Positions 4,328 to 23,836 of a stretch of DNA of 28,443 bases are shown piece after piece (position 1 is the stretch's first letter; every line of letters starts with the position of its first letter). This DNA comes from Spirochaetia bacterium. Lineage in GTDB: Bacteria > Spirochaetota > Leptospiria > Leptospirales > Leptonemataceae. The position numbers were made by a program, and so were the translations under genes. Below the pieces are notes generated by a model. The model saw only the letters and a list, made by a program, of their open reading frames with translations. It was not told where the DNA came from and did no database searches. The DNA is taken from assembly GCA_029880625.1 (NCBI GenBank), contig JAOUOA010000001.1:1-28443 (forward strand), written 5' to 3'.

Positions 4328-4610
4328 ACTGAATGATATGACCAGATTATGGGTTAAGCCCTATATTTCAATCACTTTCCCGGTAAACATTTGTTAAGCG
4401 TTACGGTTAAAGACAGGTTTGTTCAGGCGTAAATGATCCAGTTTTTCAGTCTGAAGTTCATCAAGAAAGCCTTTATCATTATTTTCAAATGAGAAATAAC
4501 TTTGGATGATTCCGTAAATAAAAACAATTCTGGAAAAATAAATAACAGAATGAGTCAGTGAAATGAAAGGAAAAAGTGATGTGAAGAAGAATGACAGAAC
4601 ACAACTGCAA

Positions 4611-4643
4611 CATGACGGCACCTGTAAATGAGATGCCGTCATG
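4611..4643 (-). terminator. stem-loop directly downstream of the LipL45-like gene, candidate terminator
   Basis: Perfect 10-bp arms CATGACGGCA / TGCCGTCATG. On the minus-strand RNA the stem extends to 13 bp through a U-G wobble with a 7-nt loop. It begins 6 nt after the stop codon. The U-tract on the minus strand is weak; the + side is T-rich. Confidence 0.6.
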
Positions 4644-4649
4644 GTATTT

Positions 4650-5735
4650 TTATTTGGAAAAGTAGTCTACGTAGTCAATTTCTTCAGTACTGATCTGTGC
4701 GACTCCGTCTGCTGAATGAAAAATGACATCATCGCCTACCTGCGTGACAATGGCTCCGGTTTTCTTTTCTCCGGTTTTTTTCACAAGCTCTTCATAGAGT
4801 TTGTAATGATCCTTGATCGCTTCTTCAGTCTGCAGATTGGTTTCCTCTGCCATATTCTGCATAGATTCACTCAGATTTTTATTGTAGTTTGTCTTGATCT
4901 GTTCTGATGTTTCTGCAGAAACCAATTTGTTTTGATGCGTATCTATTGTTTCAGATAGCATTTCCTGTTCCACGCCAGAGAGGGTTGCAAGTTCGCTTTT
5001 TTCTTTAGAATTCACAGGAGATTCAGAAGAGGTTATCTTTTCCATCTGTTTTAATTTTTTGATTTTGTCGGGATTCGGATCATGGTTGACTTTCTGAATC
5101 AGTGCATTCTGTTCTTTTGTTACAGAAGTTTCTGTTTCACTTTCAAGAATGACTTCCTGCTGATCCTGAATCTCTTTTAAATCGCTGAGATTTTTATCTT
5201 TTCTTATTTCTTCTTCGCTTTTATCGTTCAGGATTTCAAGATTGGGTTTGACAGAGACTGTTCCTTCGTAAACGCGGACCCTGGGAGCGTCTTCATCAAG
5301 AAGCTCAACGGAAAAAGTGGTTCCTCTTACTCCCGCAATTGCTGTCGGCGTATGAACGGTGTATTCGTCATCGGAAGATATTTTTTTTATTTTAGCCAGC
5401 ATTGCTCCTTCATTCAAGGTTACTTCCGCTTTATTTGCCGGAGCTTTTAAGAGGGTATTGATGGTCAAAGAAGAGGAGTCCCGAATCCGGATGATGCTGC
5501 CGCTTCTGTTCTGAATGTCTACCGTGCCGTTTTTGGTTTGAATGGTATCATTTTTTTTCAGAATAAAACCAGGAAAAGCTTTCATCTTTTTACCATCGCG
5601 TATTACCGTTGATGTTTTTGATGAATAGATGATCATAAAAACATCACTTTCTTCCGCTCGTGATTTTTCAGAACAAACGGCTGAAGTGATAGTCAGAGTT
5701 ATTGTGATAAGGAACAGTATGACTTTCTGTTTCAT
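4650..5735 (-). CDS. FecR-domain exported protein or lipoprotein, LipL45-like
   Basis: Signal peptide ending TSAV-C21, FecR motif (VHTPTAIAGVRGTTFSV), acidic helical linker, and a C-terminal small beta domain (GAIVTQVGDDVIFHSADG...IDYVDY) resembling leptospiral LipL45. GGAG ribosome-binding site upstream. Confidence 0.78.
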   Translation of the reverse strand: MKQKVILFLITITLTITSAVCSEKSRAEESDVFMIIYSSKTSTVIRDGKKMKAFPGFILKKNDTIQTKNGTVDIQNRSGSIIRIRDSSSLTINTLLKAPANKAEVTLNEGAMLAKIKKISSDDEYTVHTPTAIAGVRGTTFSVELLDEDAPRVRVYEGTVSVKPNLEILNDKSEEEIRKDKNLSDLKEIQDQQEVILESETETSVTKEQNALIQKVNHDPNPDKIKKLKQMEKITSSESPVNSKEKSELATLSGVEQEMLSETIDTHQNKLVSAETSEQIKTNYNKNLSESMQNMAEETNLQTEEAIKDHYKLYEELVKKTGEKKTGAIVTQVGDDVIFHSADGVAQISTEEIDYVDYFSK

Positions 5736-6034: not shown

Positions 6035-9000
6035 TTATCGGAGGTACAGGGGTTTATTAAAAATACAGTATAGAACCGGAACCATCAGGAGATTCACCAT
6101 CACTGAGAAGATAATTCCGATCAGAAGCGTAAGAGCGATTTTTTGCCACAAACCGCTTCCTTCCAGAATCATCGGAATCAGAGAAAAAATCGTTGTAAGA
6201 GATGTTATTATAACTGGGCGGATTCTCCGGACGGCACTCTGGATGATGAGTTTGTATTTTTGCTTTTTATTTATTATGAAGCCCTGCGGTAGAGAATGGC
6301 TGATGGATGAGGTCAGAATAATAGCTGGATTGACCGCCATTCCAGTTAGAAGGAGAAAGCCGATTAAAATTGAAAGATCAAGAGGTTTTCCTGTTATAAA
6401 ATAAAGATCAATTACAAGAAAAAGAGAAGCAGGAACCGAAAGAAGGATCACCAAAGGAATTTTAACTGATTCATAGAGGGCGCCAAGAAGCAGATAAATC
6501 AACAGTACAGCTGTAAGAATCAGTTTGATTGATTCATCATGGTGATTCATCATTTTTCTGTACCGATCTCCGAAAGTAAAAGTGATTCCTTTCGTGAATA
6601 ATTTCTCCTTTAATAAATTTTTTATTTCACGGGCAGCATGATCAACTGATTGATTTCGGAAATAAACAGTCAGCATGAGGGTTTTTCTTTTGTTTTTTCT
6701 CCAGAGTTTTGTTTCCCTTTTATGATTTTGAAAATTGGATATAGATTTGATATACGAATCTTTTTCTCCGGGCATAACTCTTAACTCAACGAGATCTCTG
6801 TTCCCAGGGCTTGCTGCTTCTCTGCCCATCATCCGAACGTCAACTCTGCGCCCAGACTGGTATATTTTACTGATGATCATTCCTGATAGAAGAAGATTTA
6901 AATGTCTGCCCAGTTTATAAACGGAACATCCGCTGCAGAATAATTTTTCCTGATCCGGCTGAATTTGAATTCCCTGTCCGGGTTTTTTAAAGCGGTAAAC
7001 GATTCGATCGATTCCCGAAACGTTTTGATGAATTAATTTTCCGGAATGAATAACTGAATTACGAAGTTCGTCGATATCCTCTCCGAAAAATTCAAGATCA
7101 AGAGTTTGAGAAGGATCGGGTTGTGATTTTCGAAAAAAGATCTGCGCATCTGGAAATCTTGAGTCTAAATATCTGAACTGATTTTGAAATTCTGCTATTT
7201 CAGGATTCCATGATTCCAAATTTATTTTGAGATGAAGATCTGCATGCGCTTTTTCAATTCTTGAGGAAACTTCAAGAATTTCAGGATGAACGAGAAGTTC
7301 CTTTTCAATTTCCTTTACCTCAAGCTGTGTTGCGGCGAGACTGTAATTTGCATTAAATTCTACTGAAGCATGCAGAATGTCTTCCTCAGTCATTTTGTTT
7401 TCTGTTCTTTCAGAAATCAATAAAACAGGAAACGAGATCAGTGTAAAAACAGAGAAAAAGAAGGTCACAGATTTGTGATTTTCTAAAAAAATTTCTGCAA
7501 TCCTTGAATATAGAGTTTCCGTTTTATGGATGAAAAGAAATGCTGAATTTGATAAAAATTCATAAATATTAAGAAAAACATGCATGAGGAAATCTGTAAA
7601 AAACAGTTTGGAAATATTCCACTTCATAATAACGGAAGAATAATATTGAGGGATGATTTTTGAGACATTCTTTTTTTCAAAATAAAGCATAAATGAAGGA
7701 ACAATTGTTATGGAAATTAAAAGAGACGAAGTTAAGGAGAAGATTACGGAAAGAGCAAGATCTTTAAAATAAGACAGAGTCTGCAGGTCGGAAAAATAGA
7801 GAGGAAAAAAAACAATCCCTGTGGTTAGAGCTGATGCTGTAAGTTCATGAATGACCCCGGAGCTGCCTTCATAAACTCTTTGAAATATGCCGTTTCTTTT
7901 TTTTCTGAATGTTTCGATTGATTCCAGAAGAACAATGGAATGATCAATCATCATTCCGGATCCCAGCGCAAGCCCTGAAAGGCTCATCAGGTTGATGGGT
8001 GTTCCGGATAAATTCATAAACAAAAAAGAGGTTAAAAAAGATAGTGGGATACTGAGAGTTATAATGAAACTGGAAATGACATTTTTAATAAAAAGATAGA
8101 GGATGAATGAAGCAATGCAGCTTCCAATCAGTCCTGCAGAAGCGAGTGTCTCAATCTCTTTTTTGATTCTAGCACCCTGATTGTATATTTCATAGCTTGA
8201 AATGTTTTTTTCTGTTTGTCTTAGAATGGAAGAGCACATTTCAGAAATGCGGATTGTATCGCCATTACCGCTCCTGTATACATAGATGCTGATCCCGTCT
8301 TCGCCGTTTGTCCTGGAAATGCTGCTTCTTTCCTTGAAATGATCCTTGATTTCTGCAGCGCTACCGAGCTTAAAAGATTTGATATTTTTTTTGACTGAAA
8401 TAACGTCAAGATCTGCGAGATCTTCTGCAGACTCAATTCCGGACAGGATTCTAATTCGATATTCATATAGACCGTCAGATATCAATCCTGCCTGAATGGA
8501 TCTGCTGTTTTTTTTAATGCTGCGAATTATATCATCCGGATTGATCTGATTGGAAGTGAGAAAATCGTTATCCAGAACTATCTGAAATTCTCTTTCAAAT
8601 CCTCCAGAAATCTGCACCTGAGATACGCCTTTGATTTTTTCAATTTTTGGCTTGATTCTATATTCTACGAAATTTCGCAGATCTGAAATTTTAACGCTGC
8701 TGCTTTTAAATGATGCTATAAAAACAGGATTCTCGGAAGGATTGTGCTGAAAAATAAGAGGTTCATTGGCATCTTTTGGGAAATAATCTCCGATCAGCTG
8801 AAGTTTTTCGGATGCTTCGAGATTCTTGTGATTGATTCTGGCATCCCCTGCGAAGAAAAGAGTGATGCTTGCTTCTCCTTCTTTTGAAAGGGATTCAATT
8901 TTTTCAATTTCTGAGATTTGGCTCAGAATATTTTCTGCGGGGATGGTGATTTGTTCTTCAATTTTTTCTGCCGCAACGCCGCTCTGGTGAATTGCAATAT

Positions 9001-9139
9001 TTAATGATGAGCTTTGTACCTCAGGCATCAGTTGGATTGGAAGCTTTACAAGGGAAATCGATCCCATAAGAGTTAAAAACAACGCAATCATCAGGGCTGT
9101 TACCGGATGTTTGAGAAAATACAATATTATTTGATTCAT
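6035..9139 (-). CDS. AcrB/AcrD/AcrF-family RND permease (second of pair)
   Basis: 1034 aa. LPIQLMPEV N-terminal motif, IEKIKGVSQVQISGG, TM4 GMMIDHSIVLLE, C-terminal RRIRPVIITSLTT. Its ATG overlaps the upstream TAA by 1 nt. Confidence 0.93.
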   Translation of the reverse strand: MNQIILYFLKHPVTALMIALFLTLMGSISLVKLPIQLMPEVQSSSLNIAIHQSGVAAEKIEEQITIPAENILSQISEIEKIESLSKEGEASITLFFAGDARINHKNLEASEKLQLIGDYFPKDANEPLIFQHNPSENPVFIASFKSSSVKISDLRNFVEYRIKPKIEKIKGVSQVQISGGFEREFQIVLDNDFLTSNQINPDDIIRSIKKNSRSIQAGLISDGLYEYRIRILSGIESAEDLADLDVISVKKNIKSFKLGSAAEIKDHFKERSSISRTNGEDGISIYVYRSGNGDTIRISEMCSSILRQTEKNISSYEIYNQGARIKKEIETLASAGLIGSCIASFILYLFIKNVISSFIITLSIPLSFLTSFLFMNLSGTPINLMSLSGLALGSGMMIDHSIVLLESIETFRKKRNGIFQRVYEGSSGVIHELTASALTTGIVFFPLYFSDLQTLSYFKDLALSVIFSLTSSLLISITIVPSFMLYFEKKNVSKIIPQYYSSVIMKWNISKLFFTDFLMHVFLNIYEFLSNSAFLFIHKTETLYSRIAEIFLENHKSVTFFFSVFTLISFPVLLISERTENKMTEEDILHASVEFNANYSLAATQLEVKEIEKELLVHPEILEVSSRIEKAHADLHLKINLESWNPEIAEFQNQFRYLDSRFPDAQIFFRKSQPDPSQTLDLEFFGEDIDELRNSVIHSGKLIHQNVSGIDRIVYRFKKPGQGIQIQPDQEKLFCSGCSVYKLGRHLNLLLSGMIISKIYQSGRRVDVRMMGREAASPGNRDLVELRVMPGEKDSYIKSISNFQNHKRETKLWRKNKRKTLMLTVYFRNQSVDHAAREIKNLLKEKLFTKGITFTFGDRYRKMMNHHDESIKLILTAVLLIYLLLGALYESVKIPLVILLSVPASLFLVIDLYFITGKPLDLSILIGFLLLTGMAVNPAIILTSSISHSLPQGFIINKKQKYKLIIQSAVRRIRPVIITSLTTIFSLIPMILEGSGLWQKIALTLLIGIIFSVMVNLLMVPVLYCIFNKPLYLR

Positions 9140-12100
9140 TATGCTTTTCGTTTCAAGCCTGCCATGAGTCGGAAAAATTTCAATTCAATTGCGTAAAAAA
9201 AGAAGGCGAATACAGCCGGAGAAAACAGCGTTGAAAAAAATATTCCTCCTGTAACCGCAGAGGCGAGAGATTTTTGGGGCGATGTGTTTTCGTCCAGAGA
9301 AACAAGAAGAGGGATCATGCCTGCCAGTGTTGTCATGCCTGTCAAAAGAATGGGACGGATTCTTTCTCTGACTGCGGAATAAATGCATTGTTTCAGAATT
9401 TTTCCGTATTGATCAATGCACTGAACGGCCTGTACATCTTGTTTTTCCAGGTTCTGTTTTATGCGTTCATATAAAATAATTGAAATATTAACGCTGATTC
9501 CGGAAAGCAGGATCAGGCCAGTTGCAGATGAAAGGTTAATTCCGTTTCCGGTTAGAATCAGGAATAGAAATGCGCCAGGTAAAAAAGCGATTGAAGATAT
9601 GACAGCTGATAGAGGATGAATGAGAGATTCGAACTGTGCGGCGAGAATCTGATAAATAAGAATCAGAGAGAGAAGAAGAGAAAAACCCAAACTGGAAATT
9701 GAAAGTAAAGTTTCACTGTTTTCTTTTAGGAGCTTTACAGATATTGGATTGATCTTTGACTGATTATTTTGGTTGTCAACAATGCTGCGAATCTTTTTAA
9801 GCGAGTCACCGAAGCGCCCCTCATCTGCTGTCTCAAATGATATATATTCAAGAAGTTTCTGGTTCTCGCGGTACAGACCTGAAAACGCATTTCCCTGTTT
9901 GACCTCAATCAGATCACGCAGAGGAACAGAAATTCCGTTTCGGTTCTGCACCAACAGTTCCCGGATCTGTTCCGGTTTGTTTCTGTCCTCGTTTTTCAGT
10001 CTCACGCGAATATCGATTTCCCTTTCCTGTTGCTTGAATTTTGATGCAACAGTTCCTGCAAATGCTTTATGAATCAGACTGCCGATATCTGAAGGGTACA
10101 GACTGAAATGCATGAGCTTTTCTTTATGGAAGGAGACTTGAATTTCAGGATCTTTCGATAAGACAGAGGAGCGGATTGAAACGATCCCCGGCTGTCTTTT
10201 TATATTTCTCAGAAGTTCTTCTGTTTTTTTTCTTGCCGCTTCTCTGTTGTTGCATTCAATTAAAATTCGGTACCTACGATCCGACTCTCCGATTAAATTC
10301 TGAAGTTCGTCTTTTTTAATCTGGAAAGATTTTTTTATTCCCCGGAATGAAGAAACAGCGGCGGAAACCTGACGTATGAATTCCCGGGAGGATACAATAT
10401 CCGTATTAACAAAAAAGACTGTCCTCGAAATATTTTTTCTTTTTGCATCCTGGATCAGAGATTCCGCGCTTTCAGCGTCATATCCAATTTTTGTAATGCT
10501 TTTTTGAATCAGTCCTCTGGAAATTAGCAATCGGTTCAGATCTCTGTGAAACGATTCGGATTCTATCAGCGGCGCTCCATCAGGAAGTTCAAATTCCGAA
10601 ATGAGAATTCCCGTATCCTGTTCCTGAAACAGCGAAATCTTAAGAAACGGAAACATCAGTATGCTTGCTGAAGCTAAAAGAAGATACAGAAGCGGAATGA
10701 ATCTTTTATGTTTAAAGGAAAAAGCCAGAAGTTTTGCATAAAAGTGATCTGCATAAAAGATCAATGATTCTGCAGCGCCGCATGCAGATTGAAACAATCT
10801 GAATTTTTTCATAAAGGGAAACTTCAGCCATGGCAGTTCTAAACAGGCAAGAACGGGAATTAAAGTCTGCGATGAAAAGAGGGAAACTGCAAGTGCAAAA
10901 CTGACTGTCAGTGCAAGGTCTTTAAAAATAACACCGGGAAGTCCCGGCAGAAAAATAACAGGCAGAAAAATAACAGCAGAAGTCAGGGCAGACCCGGTTA
11001 GCGAATGAGAAACTCCTGATACTGCCCGGTTGATATTCTGAATTTTATTTTTATTCGGATGAAGACTGATTTCACGGAAAATGGATTCAAGAGTTACGAT
11101 CGCGCTGTCAACAAGCATTCCGGTTCCAAGGGCAAGCCCCCCCAGGCTCATGATATTAATAGAAATTCCCGAGACATGCATGAAAAAAAAGGTGATGATA
11201 ACAGAAACAGGTATGGAAATTGCGATAATAAAGGATGATTGTATATTTTTTAAAAATATGAGTAAAATAAAAAAAGAAAAAAAAGCACCCAGCACAGCTG
11301 AATTTCTAACGGAGTCAATGGAATGACGCACCGGCACCGATGCGTCATTGATGATGCTGAATTTTATGGATTGAAATTCCTGCTGAATCTGATGCAGGGA
11401 TCTGCTTACGTTGTCAGCTGTCCTGATCAGATTTTTTCCGGGGTCATTTCTTATTCCGATTAAGACCGCAGGCTCTCCATTGAGAAGCGTGCTCGACGTT
11501 CTTTCTTTCAAGCCGTCAATGATTTCTGCGATCTGATTTACAAAAACCGGACTTCCGTCTGTACCATATCCGGCCGGTATATTTCCAATATCGCTGATGG
11601 ATTTGAAATTTCCTGAAAATCTTACAGAATGCTCATAAATCCCGTTTTCTATGTTTCCTGCCGGATAGTCGAAATTAGCAGACGCCAGAGCATTTGAAAC
11701 CTGATCTATGCTGATTTTATTTTCCTGCATTTTCTGCAGATCCAGATTTACGCTGATTTCTCTTTGAGTTCCGCCAGAAAGAAAAATGCCTGCAGCACCG
11801 TCGATTCGCTCAAATAAAGGAATTACATTTTTTTCAAGATCATCTCTGAGATTATTATATTCACCTTGAACGGATTCTGCTGAAATCAGTACTGCAGGCT
11901 CGGCGGCAGGGTCATACCGGATAATAACGGATTTTTGCGCTTCTTCAGGGAGGGTATATTTAATTCTGTCGAGTTTCTGGCGAAGCTGAATGATGCTCAG
12001 ATCAGGTGAACTATTCCAGTCCAGCTGAATTTCAATGGAAGAGAAGCCTTCTTCAGACCGTGAGCGAATCTTTTGCACTCCCTGAACAGAGCTGACAGCA

Positions 12101-12297
12101 TATTCAACTGGTTTTGTAATTAAATTTTCAATTTCATCCGGGGGTGCGTCAGCCATCATTGTGATTACTGTAAGCCGGGGAAAAATAATTTCAGGAAACA
12201 GTGAAATTTCAAGTTTCGTCAGAGATATTCCTCCGAGCAGGATGAGAAATCCGAAAAGCATAAGAGTTGCGATGGGTCTTTTTATAAAAATAAGCAT
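9139..12297 (-). CDS. AcrB/AcrD/AcrF-family RND permease (first of pair)
   Basis: 1052 aa. KRPIAT start, LFPEIIFP, EIENLITKPVE, TM4 GMLVDSAIVTLE, RERIRPILLTGMTT, LASAVTGG. Confidence 0.95.
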   Translation of the reverse strand: MLIFIKRPIATLMLFGFLILLGGISLTKLEISLFPEIIFPRLTVITMMADAPPDEIENLITKPVEYAVSSVQGVQKIRSRSEEGFSSIEIQLDWNSSPDLSIIQLRQKLDRIKYTLPEEAQKSVIIRYDPAAEPAVLISAESVQGEYNNLRDDLEKNVIPLFERIDGAAGIFLSGGTQREISVNLDLQKMQENKISIDQVSNALASANFDYPAGNIENGIYEHSVRFSGNFKSISDIGNIPAGYGTDGSPVFVNQIAEIIDGLKERTSSTLLNGEPAVLIGIRNDPGKNLIRTADNVSRSLHQIQQEFQSIKFSIINDASVPVRHSIDSVRNSAVLGAFFSFFILLIFLKNIQSSFIIAISIPVSVIITFFFMHVSGISINIMSLGGLALGTGMLVDSAIVTLESIFREISLHPNKNKIQNINRAVSGVSHSLTGSALTSAVIFLPVIFLPGLPGVIFKDLALTVSFALAVSLFSSQTLIPVLACLELPWLKFPFMKKFRLFQSACGAAESLIFYADHFYAKLLAFSFKHKRFIPLLYLLLASASILMFPFLKISLFQEQDTGILISEFELPDGAPLIESESFHRDLNRLLISRGLIQKSITKIGYDAESAESLIQDAKRKNISRTVFFVNTDIVSSREFIRQVSAAVSSFRGIKKSFQIKKDELQNLIGESDRRYRILIECNNREAARKKTEELLRNIKRQPGIVSIRSSVLSKDPEIQVSFHKEKLMHFSLYPSDIGSLIHKAFAGTVASKFKQQEREIDIRVRLKNEDRNKPEQIRELLVQNRNGISVPLRDLIEVKQGNAFSGLYRENQKLLEYISFETADEGRFGDSLKKIRSIVDNQNNQSKINPISVKLLKENSETLLSISSLGFSLLLSLILIYQILAAQFESLIHPLSAVISSIAFLPGAFLFLILTGNGINLSSATGLILLSGISVNISIILYERIKQNLEKQDVQAVQCIDQYGKILKQCIYSAVRERIRPILLTGMTTLAGMIPLLVSLDENTSPQKSLASAVTGGIFFSTLFSPAVFAFFFYAIELKFFRLMAGLKRKA

Positions 12298-12300
12298 GGG

Positions 12301-13800
12301 TTAAAAAGTAAAGATCAGGTTGAAATCCTGTTCCATGTAGTTATGACTGCTGTCCTGGACTCCGTCCCGTCCTCCGCGAATTCTGAATCTGTGCACAGGA
12401 GTGGATTCATTTCCGGAAATGACAGGGGCATTGAAGCGAACTCTAACGGTTTCTCCTGTTTCCGAAACGATAATGTCCTGAATTGTGAAATTATTATTCC
12501 AGGTGTCGATGATGGACTCAAATGAAGTGACAGGAGGTAGAAAAGAATTCCGGAGCATCGGTTTTGAGAACTGAATTGTCAGTTCTAATACGCAGTTTTG
12601 ACCAGAAGAAGGATCCATGTCAAAAAATTGTGAAAGATCCAGGACACTGTAGTTTTCAAGAGGCGAGTTAGGCGTGAATGCAGAAGAGGGCGTAATACCG
12701 CTGCAGTCATTTGCTGATGCCTTGAAAGAGGACTGTGTTTGCATGATGTCAACGACGTAAGGAGGAGACGAATCGTCTGCATTTGTAATTAAACCGTATG
12801 ATTCTGTATTTAAAATCGGATTGAATGAAGCATCTTTTGCATTCTGATCAATTAAGACCGTATAATACGTATTTGAAAGAAGCGGTTCATTGAAATTAAC
12901 CTGCAGAATGTTATTTTGTACCCAGACTGAGCTAAAGGGAGAAGGCGGGAAAAGTTTGATGCCTTTTTCTGAGGAAGGGTCCATGGCTTCTGAAAATTCA
13001 ATGAAAAGAGGCGAGTTCTTGCTGCAGTCAGGAAGAAACAAACCTTCATTCAATACATTTTTTCCTGATCGAACGGAGATGATTTCCGGTGGATAAAAGT
13101 CAGAACCGACGGTAAATACAATCGATCTACTGTTCCGGAGTGAGTTCCCTGATAGATCTTTCAGATGACTGTTGATATGGATTGTGTATTGTCCGGGCTT
13201 CAGATCGTATACGGGACGGATGAGGATCCGGTTTTTCTGAGAATCCAATACAGTAAAAAGAAAGGACGGGGTTATTTTAATTCCTTCAAATATTGTCGAA
13301 CGGTTAATGGCTTCTGAAAATTCAAGCGAAAGATCGATGCCGGGAGATACACCTGTTTGGCTGTCAGAGGGCGATGATGATATGAGCGAAGGGCCCATGA
13401 TGTCTGTAACCGTGTGAAAATAAAAGGTGAAATCTGATTTTATGTTTACGCCTTCGTTTGATTCTGCTGAGCGCTGAATCACTGACGTATAACGGCCTGG
13501 AAGTTTTAGCTGTGATGAAGGAGTGAAAATCATTAGATTCCCCTGCCACAGGAAGTTTCCGGAAATCCTTCCTTCCGGTCCCGAAAGCAGAAGTGCTGAT
13601 TGAGTTTTTTCTTTATCCATCGGCTGGCTAAACTGAATTTTGATTTCGCTCTTTGTGGGGACCCCCATTGCTGAATTTTCCGGGTATGTTAAAATAACTT
13701 CAGGGATTCTTGCGCTTTCAGGAAGAAAAAAAAATTCAGCTTCTTTTCCTGAGCAATTTTGATAAAGGAATATCAGGGCTAATACAGTAAGAAATTTCAT
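12301..13800 (-). CDS. lipoprotein with four tandem Ig-like (Big_5/SbsA-type) domains
   Basis: Spirochete-type lipobox LYQN-C16. Four repeats with the core I.FS..M (QFSQPMD, EFSEAIN, EFSEAMD, QFSKPML) and D..GN-type ends. Confidence 0.85.
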   Translation of the reverse strand: MKFLTVLALIFLYQNCSGKEAEFFFLPESARIPEVILTYPENSAMGVPTKSEIKIQFSQPMDKEKTQSALLLSGPEGRISGNFLWQGNLMIFTPSSQLKLPGRYTSVIQRSAESNEGVNIKSDFTFYFHTVTDIMGPSLISSSPSDSQTGVSPGIDLSLEFSEAINRSTIFEGIKITPSFLFTVLDSQKNRILIRPVYDLKPGQYTIHINSHLKDLSGNSLRNSRSIVFTVGSDFYPPEIISVRSGKNVLNEGLFLPDCSKNSPLFIEFSEAMDPSSEKGIKLFPPSPFSSVWVQNNILQVNFNEPLLSNTYYTVLIDQNAKDASFNPILNTESYGLITNADDSSPPYVVDIMQTQSSFKASANDCSGITPSSAFTPNSPLENYSVLDLSQFFDMDPSSGQNCVLELTIQFSKPMLRNSFLPPVTSFESIIDTWNNNFTIQDIIVSETGETVRVRFNAPVISGNESTPVHRFRIRGGRDGVQDSSHNYMEQDFNLIFTF

Positions 13801-13803
13801 AAT

Positions 13804-15297
13804 TTAATTTACCGTGATAAAAATGATTGGGTTTTGCTGCATCCATACAGGGCTTTCCTGAAGGTTGTAAGAAGAGAGAATTCCATTCCTGCCTCCGATA
13901 AATTCCAGTGCATATTCATCAGCGGGCGAAAGGCCTGAAATACTGATCAAAACGGTTGTGTCCGGAAATCCCTTGAATGTTCCCGGGAGAATGGATGTGA
14001 AAAATGCATGGGGTCCTTCGGGAAGTCGATCAATCTTTCTGTTTAAATTTATATTAGATGGGATGCTTCCTGCATCAACAGTATGAGAAAAGTGAACCAG
14101 AATTTCCAGGTTCCCGTTGTCGGTTGAAACAGGATTTGAGGGCTGCGAAAAGTCTGACGAAAGAGTAATAGTTTCAGAAAGAGGGTAAATGGATTCTGCA
14201 GAAAGAATTTTAAGGTAATCGGGATTTGTCTGAAAAGGAAGAATGTAATCTTTTTCTAAATGGAGTCCGGATAGATCCCGGGCGCATGTTGATACGAATA
14301 GTTCATATTTACTTTCCGGTGAAAGAGGAATTTCAGGAGTGAAGGTCAGCGTCTGAAAAAGGCTGTCCCAGAATAATATCCCCTTTACGGAACTGCGGCT
14401 ATCTGACTGGATCATTTCAGTACAGGAAGGTACGGAGCTGTAATCCATTTTTTCGCTGAATTTGATCAGAAAGGAAGCATTTCTGGAGACGGTACTTCCT
14501 GCTTCAAGAGCAGCTGGATTCCCTTGAACATGCAGGGAAGATATAAAAGGAGGAGTAAAATCCGTTCCTGTTTGAAATGTCAGATTAAAATTTTTCTGCA
14601 AGAAAATTCCCTGATGATCTTCTGCTTCAGTTGAAATTCTTACATTATACATTACAGCATGATCAAAAGGTAGATTCGGTTGAAACGTAAGAACGGTGAA
14701 ATCTCCGTTCCATAGAAATGTTCCGTCTTTATGAGGCGAAAGATTAAATGATTTTTGAACTGCATTTGGATTCATCGGCTTGGTGAAAATCACCTGGATT
14801 TCAGAATCAAGATCGATATCAGTTTCGCTTCCAGCAGGGAAGGATGATATAATTTCGGGAAAATCAGAAGAAGATCCTGAAGTGAAATGTACAATGTATT
14901 CTTTTTCCATTTTAATTCCTTTCGCAGATGATGCATTTCCGTTCAGATTCAGGATATAGGAACCTCCCGGTACAGGCGGTTCTTTCAATTCATAAATCAG
15001 TTTTGCAGATTCCCAGCGAAATATGCCCTCGGGCTGGCCCGGACCGGTCAGAGTAAAGGAGCTTTCAACACTCTTATGATCCATATCTCTGTCAAAAAGG
15101 ATACTGATAGAAGTGCCTTCAGGAAGAATTTTGACTGCAGGATCAGGGACACTTTTAAGGATCACCGGAGGATTTTCAGGAATCATCAAATAAAGGAATG
15201 ACTCGGGAAAATAATTTTTGCCGCCGCACGCTGAATGAAGCATTATAAATGTAAAGATTGTGCTGAAAAACGCGGATGACTCTGGAATCCATTTCAT
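13804..15297 (-). CDS. lipoprotein with three clear and one divergent Ig-like (Big_5/SbsA-type) domains
   Basis: Lipobox LHSA-C24. Repeat cores LFDRDMD, IFTKPMN, KFSEKMD and HFSHTVD, with G...W and A.D..G elements. ATGA overlap with the upstream adaptor gene. Confidence 0.85.
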   Translation of the reverse strand: MKWIPESSAFFSTIFTFIMLHSACGGKNYFPESFLYLMIPENPPVILKSVPDPAVKILPEGTSISILFDRDMDHKSVESSFTLTGPGQPEGIFRWESAKLIYELKEPPVPGGSYILNLNGNASSAKGIKMEKEYIVHFTSGSSSDFPEIISSFPAGSETDIDLDSEIQVIFTKPMNPNAVQKSFNLSPHKDGTFLWNGDFTVLTFQPNLPFDHAVMYNVRISTEAEDHQGIFLQKNFNLTFQTGTDFTPPFISSLHVQGNPAALEAGSTVSRNASFLIKFSEKMDYSSVPSCTEMIQSDSRSSVKGILFWDSLFQTLTFTPEIPLSPESKYELFVSTCARDLSGLHLEKDYILPFQTNPDYLKILSAESIYPLSETITLSSDFSQPSNPVSTDNGNLEILVHFSHTVDAGSIPSNINLNRKIDRLPEGPHAFFTSILPGTFKGFPDTTVLISISGLSPADEYALEFIGGRNGILSSYNLQESPVWMQQNPIIFITVN

Positions 15298-16904
15298 CTG
15301 TCTTTTTTCTCCTGCTTTAAGATTTGTGTTTCTGATTTTCTGCTTTTTATTGCAATCTTGCTTCCATCTTTAATAATGAGAAGTCGGTCTGTAATGATTT
15401 GATCGCCTTCGGAAAGACCAGATAGAATTTCTATTTCATTGCCAAACGTCTCGCCTGTAACAACAGGAACTTCAATTGCAGTTCTATTTTTTACAGAAAA
15501 AACAAATCGGCGGCGATTTTTTGATTCGTCTTCTTTCGCGATTACGAAATTTTCAGGAACTGCAAGAGCATTCTTTTTCTCTCGTATCAGCAGGCGGCAT
15601 CTTGCAAACATCCCTGGAATAATTTTTCCTTCCGGGTTCTCAATTAAAATTCCAATTTCAGACATGCGAGAAGATGGATCGATCAAAGGCGCAATTCTGC
15701 TGACCGCTCCTTTGATTATGCCTGATTTATTATTTCCAATCTCGCATTCTGCATCCTGTCTTAATTTTATATTTTCGAATTCTGATTCTGCAATTTGTAC
15801 TGAAACGATGTATCTGCGATTGTTAAATACTGAAAAAACCGGATCGCCTCTTGATACTTCCTCGCCTGCGCTTGCCTTGCGATCTGCGATGATTCCGTCA
15901 ATTGGTGAACGGATTTTACTTTCTTTTAGATAGAGTCCGGCATGTTTTACTTCAAGGAGAGCATTTTTATAGGCTGCCCGTGCCGCATCAATTCCACTTT
16001 TTTCAATTTCTGAATTTGATTCAATTAATGCTTCAATACGATTCTGTTTCTTGAGGGAATCGGATAGGTCCTTGTTTCTGAAACCAACAGAAGAAATTTG
16101 AAGCTGTTTTTTGGTCTGATAAAACTTTCCGGATGTGCTGATATACTCCGTTCTTGCCCTGATCAGTTCATGCCGGGAGATTCCGCCGATTTTATACAGT
16201 TCCATTTTATTTCTGTATTCATTTTTTGATCTGATGAAATCTGAATGGGCTGTAATGATTTCTGATCGAAGTTTGTCCAGACCTTTGATTTCTTTTTCCG
16301 CATTTTTTCTGGAACGCGAATAACGAGCTCTGGACTGCGCAAGAGCTGATCGTGCAGAACTTAAATTGCTTTTTGCTTTTTCCATACTGATTATTAAATC
16401 AAAGGTTTCAAGTTCGCATAAAATATCGCCCCTCTTTACTGTGTCGCCTTTTTCGAAAAAAGTTTCTGAGATGCGCCCCTGAATTTTTGAAGACACAACA
16501 GCCTTCTCCATGATTCTCACAGTACCTGGCCTTTTGATTTCATGTCTGAGATTCTTCTTTTTTAAGACCAGAGTATTGACTGTCGGAATCATGGCTTTTT
16601 GATCGGCGGCCTGCGGCCTTTCTTTGAAAAGCTTCAGAGATTGTATGAAAAGGATTATGATAAAACTGAGGATTAGAATTCTTATTGCAACAGAATGTTT
16701 TGTTGTTTTATCTGGATTAGCGCATCCTAACCATTTGAATGAATTATGGAAATATTTAGAAAAACATTTTATTTTTTGAGTGTGGGCTGTAACGTGCATA
16801 ATCAGAATTTGAATTGATGAAATAAACTCTTGGGAAATATTTACCTGTTTCTTGCAATCGGATGGTTTTGCTGAACCTTTTTTTCTTTTTGGTTTGTTTT
16901 TCAT
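15294..16904 (-). CDS. efflux RND periplasmic adaptor subunit (membrane fusion protein)
   Basis: TM anchor at about aa73-90, split lipoyl halves (SSKIQGRI..EKGDTVKRGD and IRSPIDGII..AGEEV..GD), PGMFARC and VVTGETFGNEIEILSGLSEGDQII. The start codon is uncertain (an alternative Met is at aa36). Confidence 0.9.
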   Translation of the reverse strand: MKNKPKRKKGSAKPSDCKKQVNISQEFISSIQILIMHVTAHTQKIKCFSKYFHNSFKWLGCANPDKTTKHSVAIRILILSFIIILFIQSLKLFKERPQAADQKAMIPTVNTLVLKKKNLRHEIKRPGTVRIMEKAVVSSKIQGRISETFFEKGDTVKRGDILCELETFDLIISMEKAKSNLSSARSALAQSRARYSRSRKNAEKEIKGLDKLRSEIITAHSDFIRSKNEYRNKMELYKIGGISRHELIRARTEYISTSGKFYQTKKQLQISSVGFRNKDLSDSLKKQNRIEALIESNSEIEKSGIDAARAAYKNALLEVKHAGLYLKESKIRSPIDGIIADRKASAGEEVSRGDPVFSVFNNRRYIVSVQIAESEFENIKLRQDAECEIGNNKSGIIKGAVSRIAPLIDPSSRMSEIGILIENPEGKIIPGMFARCRLLIREKKNALAVPENFVIAKEDESKNRRRFVFSVKNRTAIEVPVVTGETFGNEIEILSGLSEGDQIITDRLLIIKDGSKIAIKSRKSETQILKQEKKDR

Positions 16905-16919
16905 CGTATGCGCAGGAAT

Positions 16920-18362
16920 TTAATCCCTGAAACTCCTTTTTATACTCTGATAATCTTTTTTTGAATATTCCTGAATGATGTACAGCCTTAATGAATCAAG
17001 CGGCAGTCCGAGTTCTGATTCAAGCCTGCCTGCATTGATCATATAAGAAATTTTTTCTCGAATTTCTTTAAGTCTGACTTCGTTTAAGATGTGTTCTTCC
17101 CGAAGATAGTCGTGGAGAGATGTTTGGCCGAGATGAAATTTTTCTTTTTCAATTGCATTTTTTTTCCTGAGAATTATTGTATATTCATTGAGAAGATTCA
17201 GATTTATGAAGGCTTCTCTTAAAGACTGCAGCAGTCTTTTTACGGAAGTTTTGTTTTGGAAATCAGCATCTTTCTGGCTGTAGAGAGAACGCTCGAGATC
17301 CAGTTGTTTTTCCATCCTGTTTTTTTTCCAGAGTGGATTGTCGTAGAGCTGTATATTCGAATCTGATGAGAAACTTTTTTTAAATTTATTTCTTGAGGAG
17401 GAAATACCGCTGTTATGTGTCACGCTGCTGCCAAGAACGTAAAATGAAATATTGATTCCGATACCGACTTCCGTGTTTTCGGGGGGCCAATTTTCTCCGT
17501 TTTTTGAATAATGTCCTGTTACAGCAAAGGAAGGAATGTAAGAATATTTTTCAATCAGCATCTCTTTTTTCTTTTTTGCCGATGCAAGTTTTAAATTTTG
17601 AAGCGAAGGAATTTGTCGTCTCTTTAAGAATAAATTTGCAATGCCGTTTTGATCGGGGCGCTTGAAAGTGATGCGGTCAAAATCCACATGCTTTACGGAA
17701 GAGACGCCGTAATCTTTGCCAAGAATATGATAAAAATTTTCGATGGAATCATTTAATTCCCGAAGGGAAACGCTGTAAGACAGTTTTCTTCGCCTGTATT
17801 CATTCTGAATTTCCTGGTGGTCAAGCCGCTTTATCATACCAAGACTTATTTCCTTTTCCGCCCGGCGAAAAATATTCTCCGCATTGAGCATGCTTGACTT
17901 TAACAGCATGCTGATTTCTCTTTTCTCCTGAATATCCAGGTAGGCCTGTCTTACTTTGTATGAAAGTTTATGTTTCTGGATTAAATAATGATTCCTTGCG
18001 ATCCGCTGGTTGATTTTACTGATCTCATAGATGATTTTGTTTCTTCCCGCGTCAAAGATGGGCTGTGACAGCGACAGTTTGATTGAGTGATTGCTGTAAT
18101 CATAATCTCTTTCTGTTATGCTTCGTCTGCGGCTGTAGCTGATTGTTGCCGAAGGGAAAAAGTTCCTGAGCTTGCTTTTTGAAATTTCTTTTTCAAGTGC
18201 AATTTCTTTTCTGAGCGATTTCAGTTCAAAATGGTTTGCAAGAGCAATTTTTTCGGCTTCTTCAGCGCCGATTTCCTCGGCGGTAAGTTTTTTAATAGAA
18301 TAACTGAAATATGCGGTCAGAAACAATAAGAGGAACAGGTTGAAACGACAGAAGAAATGCAT
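16920..18362 (-). CDS. TolC-family outer membrane channel
   Basis: Signal peptide and two outer-membrane-efflux repeats (FFPSATISYS...LSLSQPIFDAG; YIPSFAVTGHY...GIGINISF), each followed by helical segments. Located in an operon with an adaptor and RND permeases. Confidence 0.85.
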   Translation of the reverse strand: MHFFCRFNLFLLLFLTAYFSYSIKKLTAEEIGAEEAEKIALANHFELKSLRKEIALEKEISKSKLRNFFPSATISYSRRRSITERDYDYSNHSIKLSLSQPIFDAGRNKIIYEISKINQRIARNHYLIQKHKLSYKVRQAYLDIQEKREISMLLKSSMLNAENIFRRAEKEISLGMIKRLDHQEIQNEYRRRKLSYSVSLRELNDSIENFYHILGKDYGVSSVKHVDFDRITFKRPDQNGIANLFLKRRQIPSLQNLKLASAKKKKEMLIEKYSYIPSFAVTGHYSKNGENWPPENTEVGIGINISFYVLGSSVTHNSGISSSRNKFKKSFSSDSNIQLYDNPLWKKNRMEKQLDLERSLYSQKDADFQNKTSVKRLLQSLREAFINLNLLNEYTIILRKKNAIEKEKFHLGQTSLHDYLREEHILNEVRLKEIREKISYMINAGRLESELGLPLDSLRLYIIQEYSKKDYQSIKRSFRD

Positions 18363-18375
18363 GTTTTATCCAGAA

Positions 18376-19020
18376 TTATTTGAAATTTGCCTGAATCGCT
18401 TTTTGAAAGAGTTCGGCTTTTTTTAAATGAAGAGCTTCTCTTTCCTTTAATTTTAGTTTCTTGCAGAGTTTTGCTGATGATTCATGAATTCGTAATAGTT
18501 CTGCTTCAAAAGCGGATGCTTTCTGGTATTCGATGAGAGCTTTTCTCAGCATCCCTTTCTGTTCATAAATTTTTCCAATTCGGTAATGGGCTGAATGATT
18601 ATCAGGATCATGGTTCAGAATTGAACGGTAATATAACAAAGCATCATCCATTCGATCTCTCTGTACCGAAAGAATATTTCCGAGCCACATGAGAAGGTAA
18701 GGACTTTCCCCAAAACATTTTATGTAATCTTTAAGAATCGCTTCGGCATGAGAGAAATCCCGGGTAAAAAATTTAATTTTAGCATACAGCACCGTTCCTT
18801 CAAGATGTTCCGGATATTTTTTTAAGAAGGATCGGCTTTTCTGTGCGGCTTCTTTGAATTGTCTTCTGTAATAAAGCACAGAAACATCCTGGAACTGCAT
18901 TTTGATCTGTTTATTTTTTAGATTTTTTTCCAACGGAAACAGCAGCAATGCTGACAGAGCGAAACCCGCAGCAATTGCTCCGGAAAATATTGAAAGAAGG
19001 ATTAATATTTTATTTTTCAT
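18376..19020 (-). CDS. membrane-anchored tetratricopeptide repeat protein
   Basis: N-terminal hydrophobic helix (aa5-28) and several TPR-like repeats (YLLMWLGNIL..DDALLYYRSILNHDPDN; AHYRIGKIYEQKG...ALIEYQKA). Confidence 0.85.
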   Translation of the reverse strand: MKNKILILLSIFSGAIAAGFALSALLLFPLEKNLKNKQIKMQFQDVSVLYYRRQFKEAAQKSRSFLKKYPEHLEGTVLYAKIKFFTRDFSHAEAILKDYIKCFGESPYLLMWLGNILSVQRDRMDDALLYYRSILNHDPDNHSAHYRIGKIYEQKGMLRKALIEYQKASAFEAELLRIHESSAKLCKKLKLKEREALHLKKAELFQKAIQANFK

Positions 19021-21076: not shown

Positions 21077-23836
21077 ATGTTATTGAAAAAAATCCGCATG
21101 ATTGGATTCAAATCATTTGCAGATGAAACAATTTTCGAACTCGAAGAAGGGATTACCGCTGTCGTTGGGCCGAACGGCTGCGGTAAATCAAACATACTGG
21201 ATGCTGTAAGGTGGGTTCTCGGAGAAAAGTCTGCCAGAGGTCTAAGGGCCAAAAGTATGGATGATGTGATCTTTCTTGGATCGGAAAACAGAAAACCTGC
21301 CGGTATGGCTGAAGTAGAAATCATCTTTAATAATAAGGACAGAATCCTCGGTGTTGATCTCGATGAGGTTTCTGTAGGCAGGCGGATTTATTTAAATAGC
21401 GCCAGTGAATATCTTTTAAACGGAAAAAAAACAACAAGAAAAGAAATCGAGCAGGTTTTCATGGATACCGGGATCGGCAAAACTGCCTATTCCATCATGG
21501 AGCAGGGAAGAATGGCTGAAATTCTTTCAGCCTCCCCCGACGATAGGCGAAAACTTTTTGATGAAGCAGCCGGAGTTTCCCGTTTCAAAGCAGAAAGAGA
21601 GGAAACTCTTGCAAGACTGCATGATACAGATCAGAATCTTCTTCGGCTAAATGATATATTAAAAAGCAAAAATGAAGAAATGGAAAATTTGGAACGACAG
21701 GCGAAAAAAACAAGAGAGTACATCCATTTAAAAGAAAAACTTGATGAGCATCATCTGAATCTGAATTATATAAGCTACAGAGAACTCTCTGAAAAGAAAA
21801 GGAAGATTGACGAACGTTTGCTGAATATCTTAAAAAAAAGAGATGATGTATTTGAAAAACTTTCCGAACGCGAAGCCAGTTCCGAAAAAATAGAGTTGGA
21901 ACTTCAGGAGCAGGTCCAGAACATGCATCAGAAAGACCGGGAATTTCATCAGGATCAGTCACGTATGGAGTCGATCCAGGAAAGTCTGGAAAGAATCACA
22001 GGGGAAATTCAGGACAGAGTCGAACGTCAGGAAGGGATCGAACAGCGGAAAAAAACAGAAGAAAAATTAAATAAAGATATTGAAGCGCGTCTTCAGGCTT
22101 CCATGCAGATGGAGCTGGATCTTGACAGCGAAATTAAAACGCTGCAGGATGCTGGAAGCCGTCTCGGGAAAAGTATTGAGGTTCTTTCATCAGAAATACA
22201 AGAATCACAGGGAAAAGAAGAAGAAAATCATGAAGAACTTCAGAGGATTGAGAAAGAACATTCGTCTCTCCTTGAAGAACTGAAAAATGTAACACGCGAA
22301 ATTATCCAAGAGTTGGAGAGCAAAAAAAAGGATCTTGCAAAAAAAGAAGATTTCAGAAAGAGTCTTAAAGACGCTATTGAAAACAGCCTTTCCGATGCAG
22401 AGGAAAAATTAAATTCTGTTTCCGGCCTGATAGGTAATAAAGAATTTGATCATCTTCAAAGCATGATTGCTGAAATCAAGCCTGGAAAAATTCTCAGAGA
22501 TTTTTCTTCATACGAGGAAATTGAAAGCGAATTTCGCTCTATTCTATTTGCGCGTAGCGGACATCTTGCTAAAAAGGAAGAACTGGATGCGAAAATGGAC
22601 GAGCTTCGCTCTCGAAAAGAATTTCTGATAAAGGAAAATGGTCATCTGATTGAGAAGAGAAAAATTAATACAGTAAGTCTTGAAAAAGAAAAAAACCGGA
22701 AAGTGGAAGTGGAACTTCAAATTCGAGATTTTCAGGTGAGAAGGGAATCTTCTCTGGAAGCACGAGAAGGAATTGCAGAACAGCTCAAAGAGTCTGCTGA
22801 CAGAATTAAGTATTATTCAGGCGAGATCAGCCGTGTAAGCTCTGAAAAAGGAAAGCTGGTAACGGAACAGGCTTCTTTGAATCAGGAACTGGATCATATG
22901 CAGAAAAATACTCTGAAACAGACATCCGCACTTGAGGCAATGAAGCTTAAAATCGAAAAAACAAAAACTTCAATCAATGATCTCAAGGAAAAAAATAAAA
23001 AAGACAGGGAGCTGATTGAAAAAATTATTCCGGAAATCGGCGAAATGGAAAGGGCTGCTGAAAATATTTCTGTACAGGAACATACGCTGCAGGAAGAGCT
23101 TTACAATGATTTTCAAATTTCCCCGGGAGAACTGGAAGACCGCTGTTCTTCGCTTGATTTGAATAAATCCAGGGAAGAATCTGAATATAGACGGATTAAA
23201 AGCGATATCTCAAATCTCGGACAATTCAACGCGCTGGCTATTGAAGAACTGGATAGAAGCCGCGAGTCCTGCAGTCATCTGAAGCAGCAGGAAGATGATA
23301 TTCAGAAGGCACGCAAAAATATTATTTCAATAATTGATGATATTGATCAAAAGTCCAGGGCCCGTTTTCGTGATACTTTTGAAAGAATACAGAATAATTT
23401 TTCTGAGATATTCCAGTCTCTTTTTGGAGGTGGCAGAGCATCCCTCTCTCTGGTGGATACTGAAAATCCCATGACAAGCGGGATTGATATTATGGTTCAG
23501 CCTCCGGGTAAAAAAAACCGAAGCATCTCCCTCCTTTCAGGAGGCGAAAAAAATATGACTGCGATTGCGCTTATGTTTGCGACATATCTGGTCAGACCTT
23601 CGCCATTCTGCTTCCTGGATGAAATTGACGCTCCTCTTGATGAGAGCAACGTAAGCCGATTTCTTAAAATGCTTTCCGGTTTTGCCGGAAGATCTCAGTT
23701 TCTTGTTATCACTCATAATAAGCAGACCATGACAAAATCCCAGGCGATTTTTGGCGTTACTCAGGAAGAGGCAGGTGTGAGTAAAATTGTATCTGTAAGA
23801 CTATCTCAAAATAAAGAAACTATGACCTATGCCTGA
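21077..23836 (+). CDS. smc: chromosome segregation SMC-family ATPase (short, 919 aa)
   Basis: GFKSF, Walker A GPNGCGKSN, Q-loop MEQG, long coiled coils, signature LSGGEK, Walker B/D-loop FLDEIDAPLD, H-loop VITHN. Confidence 0.92.
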   Translation: MLLKKIRMIGFKSFADETIFELEEGITAVVGPNGCGKSNILDAVRWVLGEKSARGLRAKSMDDVIFLGSENRKPAGMAEVEIIFNNKDRILGVDLDEVSVGRRIYLNSASEYLLNGKKTTRKEIEQVFMDTGIGKTAYSIMEQGRMAEILSASPDDRRKLFDEAAGVSRFKAEREETLARLHDTDQNLLRLNDILKSKNEEMENLERQAKKTREYIHLKEKLDEHHLNLNYISYRELSEKKRKIDERLLNILKKRDDVFEKLSEREASSEKIELELQEQVQNMHQKDREFHQDQSRMESIQESLERITGEIQDRVERQEGIEQRKKTEEKLNKDIEARLQASMQMELDLDSEIKTLQDAGSRLGKSIEVLSSEIQESQGKEEENHEELQRIEKEHSSLLEELKNVTREIIQELESKKKDLAKKEDFRKSLKDAIENSLSDAEEKLNSVSGLIGNKEFDHLQSMIAEIKPGKILRDFSSYEEIESEFRSILFARSGHLAKKEELDAKMDELRSRKEFLIKENGHLIEKRKINTVSLEKEKNRKVEVELQIRDFQVRRESSLEAREGIAEQLKESADRIKYYSGEISRVSSEKGKLVTEQASLNQELDHMQKNTLKQTSALEAMKLKIEKTKTSINDLKEKNKKDRELIEKIIPEIGEMERAAENISVQEHTLQEELYNDFQISPGELEDRCSSLDLNKSREESEYRRIKSDISNLGQFNALAIEELDRSRESCSHLKQQEDDIQKARKNIISIIDDIDQKSRARFRDTFERIQNNFSEIFQSLFGGGRASLSLVDTENPMTSGIDIMVQPPGKKNRSISLLSGGEKNMTAIALMFATYLVRPSPFCFLDEIDAPLDESNVSRFLKMLSGFAGRSQFLVITHNKQTMTKSQAIFGVTQEEAGVSKIVSVRLSQNKETMTYA

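Follow-up and report, generated by a model that had tools for sequence, protein, structure and literature searches.

An RND exporter locus of spirochaetes in which two permeases are encoded together with two Ig-fold lipoproteins and a TPR protein

Tripartite exporters belonging to the resistance-nodulation-division (RND) superfamily are built from a permease, an adaptor and an outer-membrane channel, to which some add a small chaperone or small membrane peptide; they rank among the bacterial machines that have been studied best. In MdtABC-TolC and MuxABC-OpmB, HAE1 pumps of Proteobacteria, an adaptor and an outer-membrane factor are combined with two divergent permeases, whose genes lie in tandem with touching frames. 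The RND operon CusCFBA encodes an extra periplasmic protein that serves the pump, the small soluble metal-binding CusF. In mycobacteria, the HAE2 RND pump MmpL5 depends for its trimerisation and activity on MmpS5, a membrane-anchored, immunoglobulin (Ig)-like periplasmic protein encoded with the permease (PMC12501195), and Borrelia burgdorferi provides a spirochaete tripartite RND system, BesABC (PMC2279261, PMC3807786). Here we analysed a 28,443-nt stretch from a Spirochaetia bacterium of the Leptonemataceae (GCA_029880625.1; hereafter, the window), which is the entire contig JAOUOA010000001.1 and the longest contig of a metagenome-assembled genome (MAG; 81% complete, 666 contigs). It carries a seven-gene RND locus that includes two Ig-fold lipoproteins and a tetratricopeptide repeat (TPR) protein. 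Such an Ig-linked two-permease pump is a variant not described in the literature searched, the RND pump core itself being of a known kind; full-text searches turned up no account of spirochaete RND pumps with Ig or Big_5 partners.

The open reading frame (ORF) list places the seven genes co-directionally on the minus strand, from 19020 to 6035. Domain searches of the window proteins used Pfam and NCBIfam with the family cut-offs applied. In gene order, the features are:

18376-19020, minus strand: TPR protein, 214 aa; Pfam TPR_19, TPR_14 and TPR_2
16920-18362, minus strand: outer-membrane factor (TolC-like), 480 aa; signal peptide; Pfam OEP
15294-16904, minus strand: membrane-fusion (adaptor) protein, 536 aa; TIGR01730
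13804-15297, minus strand: Ig1, a Big_5 lipoprotein, 497 aa; lipobox Cys24; three Pfam Big_5 domains, 107 bits
12301-13800, minus strand: Ig2, a Big_5 lipoprotein, 499 aa; lipobox Cys16; three Pfam Big_5 domains, 139 bits
9139-12297, minus strand: RND permease 1 (RND1), 1052 aa; ACR_tran, 621 bits
6035-9139, minus strand: RND permease 2 (RND2), 1034 aa; ACR_tran, 475 bits; the start overlaps the RND1 stop by 1 nt

The gaps between these genes, computed from the ORF coordinates, are 13, 15, -4, 3, 3 and -1 nt, exactly the gene order and gap sizes given in the original prediction, which was made from the sequence alone. Its statement that no ATP-binding cassette (ABC) ATPase is present agrees with the domain searches, which detected no ABC transporter ATPase in the window, and hence nothing of the type I secretion kind. 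Nor did a survey of the syntenic loci, based on ORF size and on similarity to the seven proteins, find an ABC transporter. A scan for promoters and terminators returned sites no more numerous than in shuffled sequence and was uninformative on the transcription unit. The sole match among public sequencing runs searched for expression data was a sediment metagenome DNA run, probably from the source sample.

Homology identifies the core as a two-permease tripartite RND exporter of the MdtABC kind, outside that family. ACR_tran covers the full length of both permeases, and RND1 aligns full-length to MdtB, CmeB, MexB and AcrB, with MdtB as the closest solved chain (E = 6.6e-81). Identity to MdtABC and MuxABC is about 25%, and the NCBIfam subfamily cut-offs lie well above the observed scores (RND_permease_2, 513 and 373 vs 1250 bits; MdtB, 290 vs 1584; MdtC, 304 vs 1774). 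The permeases likewise fall outside the heavy-metal efflux (HME) class (TIGR00914, 301 and 258 vs 701 bits; no CusF) and the MmpS/MmpL class (MMPL, 30 and 55 bits, secondary under ACR_tran; no MmpS-like protein). The adaptor scores 192 bits with TIGR01730 (cut-off 94.9), whereas the channel matches only the first repeat of Pfam OEP (95 bits, cut-off 22) and reaches 54 bits with TIGR01844 (cut-off 225). Compared with MdtABC and MuxABC, the window adaptor is anchored by a transmembrane (TM) helix and has a hairpin of ~165 residues, the proton relay reads D-x-N-R-T rather than D-D-K-R-T, and the two Ig lipoproteins and the TPR protein are additional. There are also differences from BesABC: BesA is reported to have no alpha-hairpin (PMC2279261, PMC3807786), while that of the window adaptor is exceptionally long, and the Bes system, judged from its component names only (BesA, BesB and BesC), comprises no second permease, Ig protein or TPR protein.

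We propose, at about even confidence, that the two-permease pump has the Ig lipoproteins and the TPR protein as dedicated, non-catalytic partners and not as cargo. The locus would then represent a spirochaete-specific elaboration of the tripartite RND exporter.

The Ig genes are a conserved part of the locus. With Ig2 as query, matches were obtained in 32 of 41 related genomes, usually as two adjacent matches, and all seven window proteins were mapped onto 17 Leptospirales loci. The complete order TPR-TolC-adaptor-Ig1-Ig2-RND1-RND2 is present in 11 of these, from nine genera of the window's own family, and also in two further Leptospirales MAG loci (L071 and L072). The recurrence of the same seven genes in the same order in 13 other loci, at 25-41% identity, shows that the arrangement is not a chance neighbourhood. 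Two genomes have two copies each. The four loci from Leptospira proper have TPR-Ig1-Ig2-RND1-RND2 on one strand and the TolC and adaptor genes divergent, ~2 kb upstream; in two more loci of the Leptospira family the adaptor gene is instead downstream of RND2, and one locus (L073) has the order TolC-adaptor-RND1-RND2-Ig1-Ig2 with no TPR match. RND1 and RND2 are paired in every syntenic locus. Exact look-up assigned orthologues of this type (type A) to L. mayottensis, L. borgpetersenii, L. weilii, L. alstonii and L. alexanderi, so a similar gene order does exist in Leptospira, as the original prediction suggested. The public names of the Leptospira Ig orthologues are generic ('Ig-like domain-containing protein' or 'conserved hypothetical lipoprotein'). 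In one Leptospira genome (G032), an in-frame TAG splits the RND1 orthologue into 352 and 742 aa (L036:3981-7045), likely a pseudogene in one species.

Linkage extends far beyond the Leptospirales. A hidden Markov model (HMM) of Ig2 orthologues (E <= 1e-20) detected matches, mostly as adjacent pairs, in 99 of 301 sampled Spirochaetota genomes from 53 of 126 genera, with 0 of 38 genomes positive in one spirochaete family. In most of 18 distant spirochaete loci the Ig genes remain with the adaptor, the channel and the two permeases, in at least three layouts: TolC-adaptor-Ig-Ig-RND-RND, which is seen most often, adaptor-RND-RND-Ig-Ig (L043 and L054) and Ig-Ig-TolC-adaptor-RND-RND (L047 and L048). 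L051 and L057 are exceptions, a single Ig gene was detected in L049 and L050, and some loci are cut by contig ends. Ig linkage that outlasts gene rearrangement provides good evidence for a functional connection. The TPR gene is found less consistently, having been detected only in the Leptospirales and three other loci. All RND1 matches of at least 550 bits in related genomes directly adjoin an Ig2 match. The outcome that the original prediction named as its refutation, Ig genes absent from or unlinked in most homologous RND operons, is thus not what is seen within Spirochaetota, and its claim that they are an integral part of the module is borne out by the synteny. A protein search with the Ig profile retrieved mostly generic multi-Big_5 proteins with ice-binding or CopC domains and was uninformative on taxonomic range, since domain repeats raise such scores.

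Outside the phylum, 77 loci (L074-L150) at 27-31% identity were recovered when 185,579 species genomes were scanned for a pattern seeded with a five-sequence RND1 alignment; they come from Clostridia, Omnitrophota, Acidobacteriota, Gemmatimonadota, Planctomycetota and others. These are organised as adaptor-RND or adaptor-RND-RND, and no Ig1- or Ig2-like gene was found within 8 kb in these 77 nearest RND loci of other phyla. Several of these phyla (Omnitrophota, a Planctomycetia MAG and others) likewise have RND1-like and RND2-like genes in tandem. One reading of these gene arrangements is that the spirochaete novelty would be the lipoproteins added to a two-permease pump.

The proton relay was compared at AcrB positions 407, 408, 940, 971 and 978 in an alignment with AcrB, MdtB, MdtC and CusA of E. 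coli MG1655. RND1 has D-S-N-R-T and RND2 has D-H-N-R-T instead of the AcrB-type set (D407, D408, K940, R971 and T978). D407, R971 and T978 are kept in 18 RND1 and 18 RND2 Leptospirales orthologues (position 978 is S in two RND1), position 408 is a variable neutral residue and K940 is replaced by N in all 36. Such strict conservation suggests that the permeases are active with one carboxylate, and since both keep D407, R971 and T978, both are probably proton-driven, through a single-carboxylate relay. The original prediction took the altered relay as pointing to a machine other than an efflux pump, which does not hold up: the same reduced set is the commonest among the Ig-less RND relatives elsewhere, with D-N-N-R-T in 75 of the 141 aligned frames of at least 800 aa from the other-phyla loci (a total that includes non-RND frames and five references), in permeases that sit in plain adaptor-RND operons with no Ig genes. 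We therefore reject the relay residues as a sign of special function. The reduced relay appears to be a trait of a broad, little-studied and apparently uncharacterised RND clade across many phyla, and it provides no evidence of special function here. Close matches of the D-N-N-R-T clade include no solved structure.

This relay set, found in so many plain adaptor-RND operons, and the standard nature of all core parts would suit an ordinary drug or metal efflux pump in which the Ig and TPR genes are functionally unrelated operon passengers. A weak CopC-like match in Ig2 (25.7 bits) could be taken to favour metals. However, no stretch of Ig2 passes as CopC on its own and NF033814 scores 19 against a cut-off of 95; the CopC matches are marginal cross-matches between Ig-like folds, and we rejected a metal-chaperone role for Ig2. 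The HME/CusA models are below their cut-offs, and CusF, a small soluble protein, is unlike Ig1 and Ig2. Unlike passengers, moreover, the Ig genes have kept their linkage through permutations of gene order across the phylum and in the paralogous systems described below, and we judge the passenger explanation very unlikely. Nothing in the window points to drugs, metals or protein as the substrate.

The adaptor offers a second line of evidence. Its AlphaFold2 model (predicted local distance difference test score (pLDDT) 83.9) places a TM helix at 70-94 and an alpha-hairpin at 168-328, together with the customary lipoyl, beta-barrel and membrane-proximal domains. The outgoing helix comprises 71 residues (168-238), roughly 10 nm if straight, and the return helix is broken at 272-285. 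At this break, G274, R276 and D279 are invariant in 31 adaptors, with the motif G-[FY]-R-[DN]-x-D. Of the 31 Ig-linked spirochaete adaptors, 28 have a hairpin region of 169 residues (range, 164-173; window, 164); these adaptors share only 22-32% identity with the window adaptor. By comparison, 66 adaptors from the nearest non-spirochaete operons have hairpin regions of 50-144 residues, with three outliers, and all but one are devoid of the break motif. The co-occurrence of Ig partners with a hairpin of constant length and a conserved kink is the best hint of a fit between pump and partners, as a correlation among related sequences. The first ~70 residues of the adaptor were modelled at low confidence and an alternative in-frame Met is at codon 36, leaving the true start uncertain.

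Ig1 and Ig2 are two tandem lipobox proteins of ~500 aa with Big_5 domains only, beside an adaptor, a channel and two permeases. The cysteine after the signal peptide is invariant in all 51 aligned first- and second-of-pair Ig proteins, which identifies them as lipoproteins. The AlphaFold2 model of Ig2, made from this 51-sequence alignment (pLDDT 90.9; predicted template modelling score 0.71), has a short helix behind the lipid anchor and, beyond it, four beta-sandwich domains (33-132, 137-234, 238-341 and 345-499), the fourth being a divergent Big_5-like domain with loop insertions. Domains 1 and 2, proximal to the anchor, are the best conserved and domain 4 the least. The best sequence and fold matches of Ig2 (Foldseek) are bacterial Ig-like (BIg) domains of LdtMt2, a lipoprotein of mycobacteria, the Ig rods of the S-layer proteins SbsB and SbsC, and eukaryotic tandem-Ig proteins. 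LdtMt2 has its BIg domains between a lipid anchor and a catalytic domain, and SbsB and SbsC form S-layers, whereas Ig1 and Ig2 have Ig domains only and are tied to a pump; neither Pfam nor Foldseek revealed an enzyme fold or known ligand-binding module in the Ig proteins.

A maximum-likelihood tree mostly splits first- from second-of-pair Ig proteins (3 label changes, compared with a mean of 17 in shuffles), although its deep branches are weak, and Ig1 falls in the first-of-pair clade. The split indicates an old duplication, of which both copies and their order have been kept, a retention that suggests different roles for Ig1 and Ig2. Identity to the window proteins across the syntenic Leptospirales loci is 23-34% for the Ig proteins, 21-33% for the TolC-like channel, 28-36% for the adaptor and 26-34% for RND2. 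By these values the divergence of the Ig proteins does not exceed that of the channel and is only slightly above that of the remaining parts, which does not look like the behaviour of a fast-evolving surface antigen.

Related pumps combine with Big_5 proteins in other ways. The next tier of RND1 matches (~400-520 bits) consists of paralogous pumps of two further types, B and C, with a Big_5 protein of their own. In Leptospira type B (L059 and L060) the genes encode TolC, a Big_5 protein of 1225 aa and eight such domains, an ORF, TPR, adaptor, RND, RND and a Yip1 protein, the single Big_5 protein standing in place of the Ig1/Ig2 pair. Type C (L064 and L065) has TolC, a 605-aa Big_5 protein, two ORFs, adaptor, RND and RND. 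In both types, and in L063, L066 and L067, the Big_5 gene directly follows TolC; these loci are from Leptospira and relatives. Their RND1 has the relay D-x-D-V-N and their RND2 lacks all relay residues, whereas both window permeases keep the set. The number of Ig domains per system varies from ~1-3 (318 aa) and ~5 (605 aa) to 4+4 (window) and 8 or more (1225 aa).

Two second-tier loci from the window's family, L061 and L062, have no Ig gene within the stretch retrieved. Here the pump paralogue lies next to genes for a PT-HINT (pretoxin) protein and for MORN-repeat proteins, and to an open frame of >2276 aa for which Pfam gave no match (L061:1184-2611 and L061:5175-5789; L062:2-6829 and L062:14884-15720). 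One distant spirochaete locus has a 3147-aa ORF after its Ig pair. The link to giant proteins is thus real for some versions of the module and is not a property of the window's version: besides the permeases, no ORF of >1100 aa is present in the window or in the Leptospirales type-A loci. It strikes us as rather improbable that a new kind of RND-energised envelope apparatus, made up of the Ig rods, the long adaptor of fixed length and the TPR lipoprotein, exports or deploys macromolecules, e.g., giant polymorphic-toxin-like proteins such as those flanking the paralogous modules. If true, this would be a so far undescribed secretion route restricted to spirochaetes, and the Leptospirales version would serve cargo encoded elsewhere. 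The largest open frames of the window's genome have no significant similarity to the giant ORFs near Ig-linked pumps elsewhere. The longest of them (G000:C188:7785-14933; 2383 codons) reaches a contig end and has a lipoprotein-like signal followed by a Gly-rich stretch.

The arrangement that we favour can be outlined as follows. RND1 and RND2 probably form a mixed trimer, as MdtB and MdtC do, and the membrane-anchored long-hairpin adaptor with the TolC-like channel would complete the conduit. Ig1, Ig2 and the TPR protein may act as a scaffold, brace, assembly aid or substrate-handling arm beside the long adaptor tube, where the hairpin break G-[FY]-R-[DN]-x-D offers a candidate site for docking. 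By analogy, MmpS5 provides the closest functional precedent for an RND pump with an Ig-fold partner. It is, however, a protein of ~15 kDa with one TM helix and one Ig domain, while Ig1 and Ig2 are lipid-anchored four-domain proteins of ~500 aa each; MmpS5 has no sequence relation to them, MmpL5 belongs to another permease subfamily, and mycobacteria have no TolC-type channel.

Several points weigh against such a partnership. Physical contact between the Ig proteins and the pump is hypothetical, and the hairpin correlation is drawn from related, non-independent sequences. The module is accessory, being missing from many Leptospira species and from whole spirochaete families. The varying number of Ig domains among the paralogous systems argues against a strict ruler or strut of fixed length. 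Finally, the gene linkage would be equally expected if the Ig proteins handled an exported product outside the pump. The last point leads to an alternative in which pump and Ig proteins share a pathway and not a complex: the pump would export a small molecule, lipid or polymer, and the Ig proteins (possibly with the TPR protein) would act on this product by binding, retaining or organising it in the periplasm or on the cell surface, or by protecting the producer, while not being pump subunits. Conserved linkage fits this equally well, a variable number of Ig domains is easier to accommodate in a binding or fence protein than in a fitted subunit, and Big_5 rods are typical of S-layer and surface proteins. 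Yet the restriction of the fixed-length adaptor hairpin and its break to systems with Ig partners suggests that pump and partners are co-adapted, and the Ig proteins have no recognisable ligand-binding or enzyme module. We regard this alternative as serious, if somewhat unlikely.

The TPR protein bears on another possibility, that the Ig lipoproteins are clients moved by the RND machine to or across the outer membrane. TPR orthologues are in the same position in all 17 Leptospirales loci, and nearly all of them, there and beyond, have a lipobox cysteine. The window protein has an N-terminal hydrophobic segment (~5-28) with no cysteine, followed by TPR repeats (~50-200); a signal-anchor or an uncleaved signal seems to have taken the place of its lipid anchor. 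Its weak match to TPR_Slam (26.9 bits) would favour the client idea, as would co-transcription of the Ig genes in apparent proportion to the pump (gaps of -4, 3 and 3 nt) and the fact that export of surface lipoproteins in spirochaetes is incompletely understood. However, the TPR_Slam score is below the cut-off of 35.2 and the 214-aa protein has no DUF560 barrel, so that Slam membership was rejected, and we know of no RND pump that moves folded or lipidated proteins. The Ig proteins also evolve about as slowly as the pump parts. In other lineages and in paralogues, the candidate cargo nearby is another protein, a giant one, and entire lipoprotein-rich families lack the module, including the one with no positive genomes. 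Cargo was one of the options raised for the Ig lipoproteins in the original prediction; we found no positive evidence for it and consider it distinctly improbable.

If the Ig and TPR proteins are indeed dedicated partners of the pump, the list of RND parts would be widened by a phylum-wide variant in which a TPR protein accompanies two large Ig-fold lipoproteins, as it would by an adaptor hairpin of near-constant length across distant lineages. The partners and the hairpin may reflect adaptation of the pump to the spirochaete periplasm, which also houses the flagella. Given that orthologues are present in cultivable Leptospira, including saprophytes, the role of the Ig partners is testable with existing genetics.

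The genes flanking the operon are unrelated housekeeping or envelope genes, among them those for an OmpA-family protein, a DUF1577/PilZ protein, histidyl-tRNA synthetase, a KAS-type synthase and a LipL45/FecR-like lipoprotein; further ones encode an MptE-like protein, an SMC-like ATPase, a PEGA protein, a flippase-like protein and a transglycosylase. After RND2, most relatives have a ~270-aa ORF with no Pfam match, often with overlapping stop and start, and then a gene for a Yip1-domain membrane protein (e.g., L022:15074-16602, L031:15385-16859 and L059:18030-18719), both of which are missing from the window. Past RND2, the window instead has a 300-nt gap and then the LipL45/FecR-like lipoprotein gene with an 82-aa ORF (4394-5735). 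Upstream of the operon, the gene for a 919-aa SMC_N/AAA_23 protein (21077-23836) is divergent from that for the MptE-like protein.

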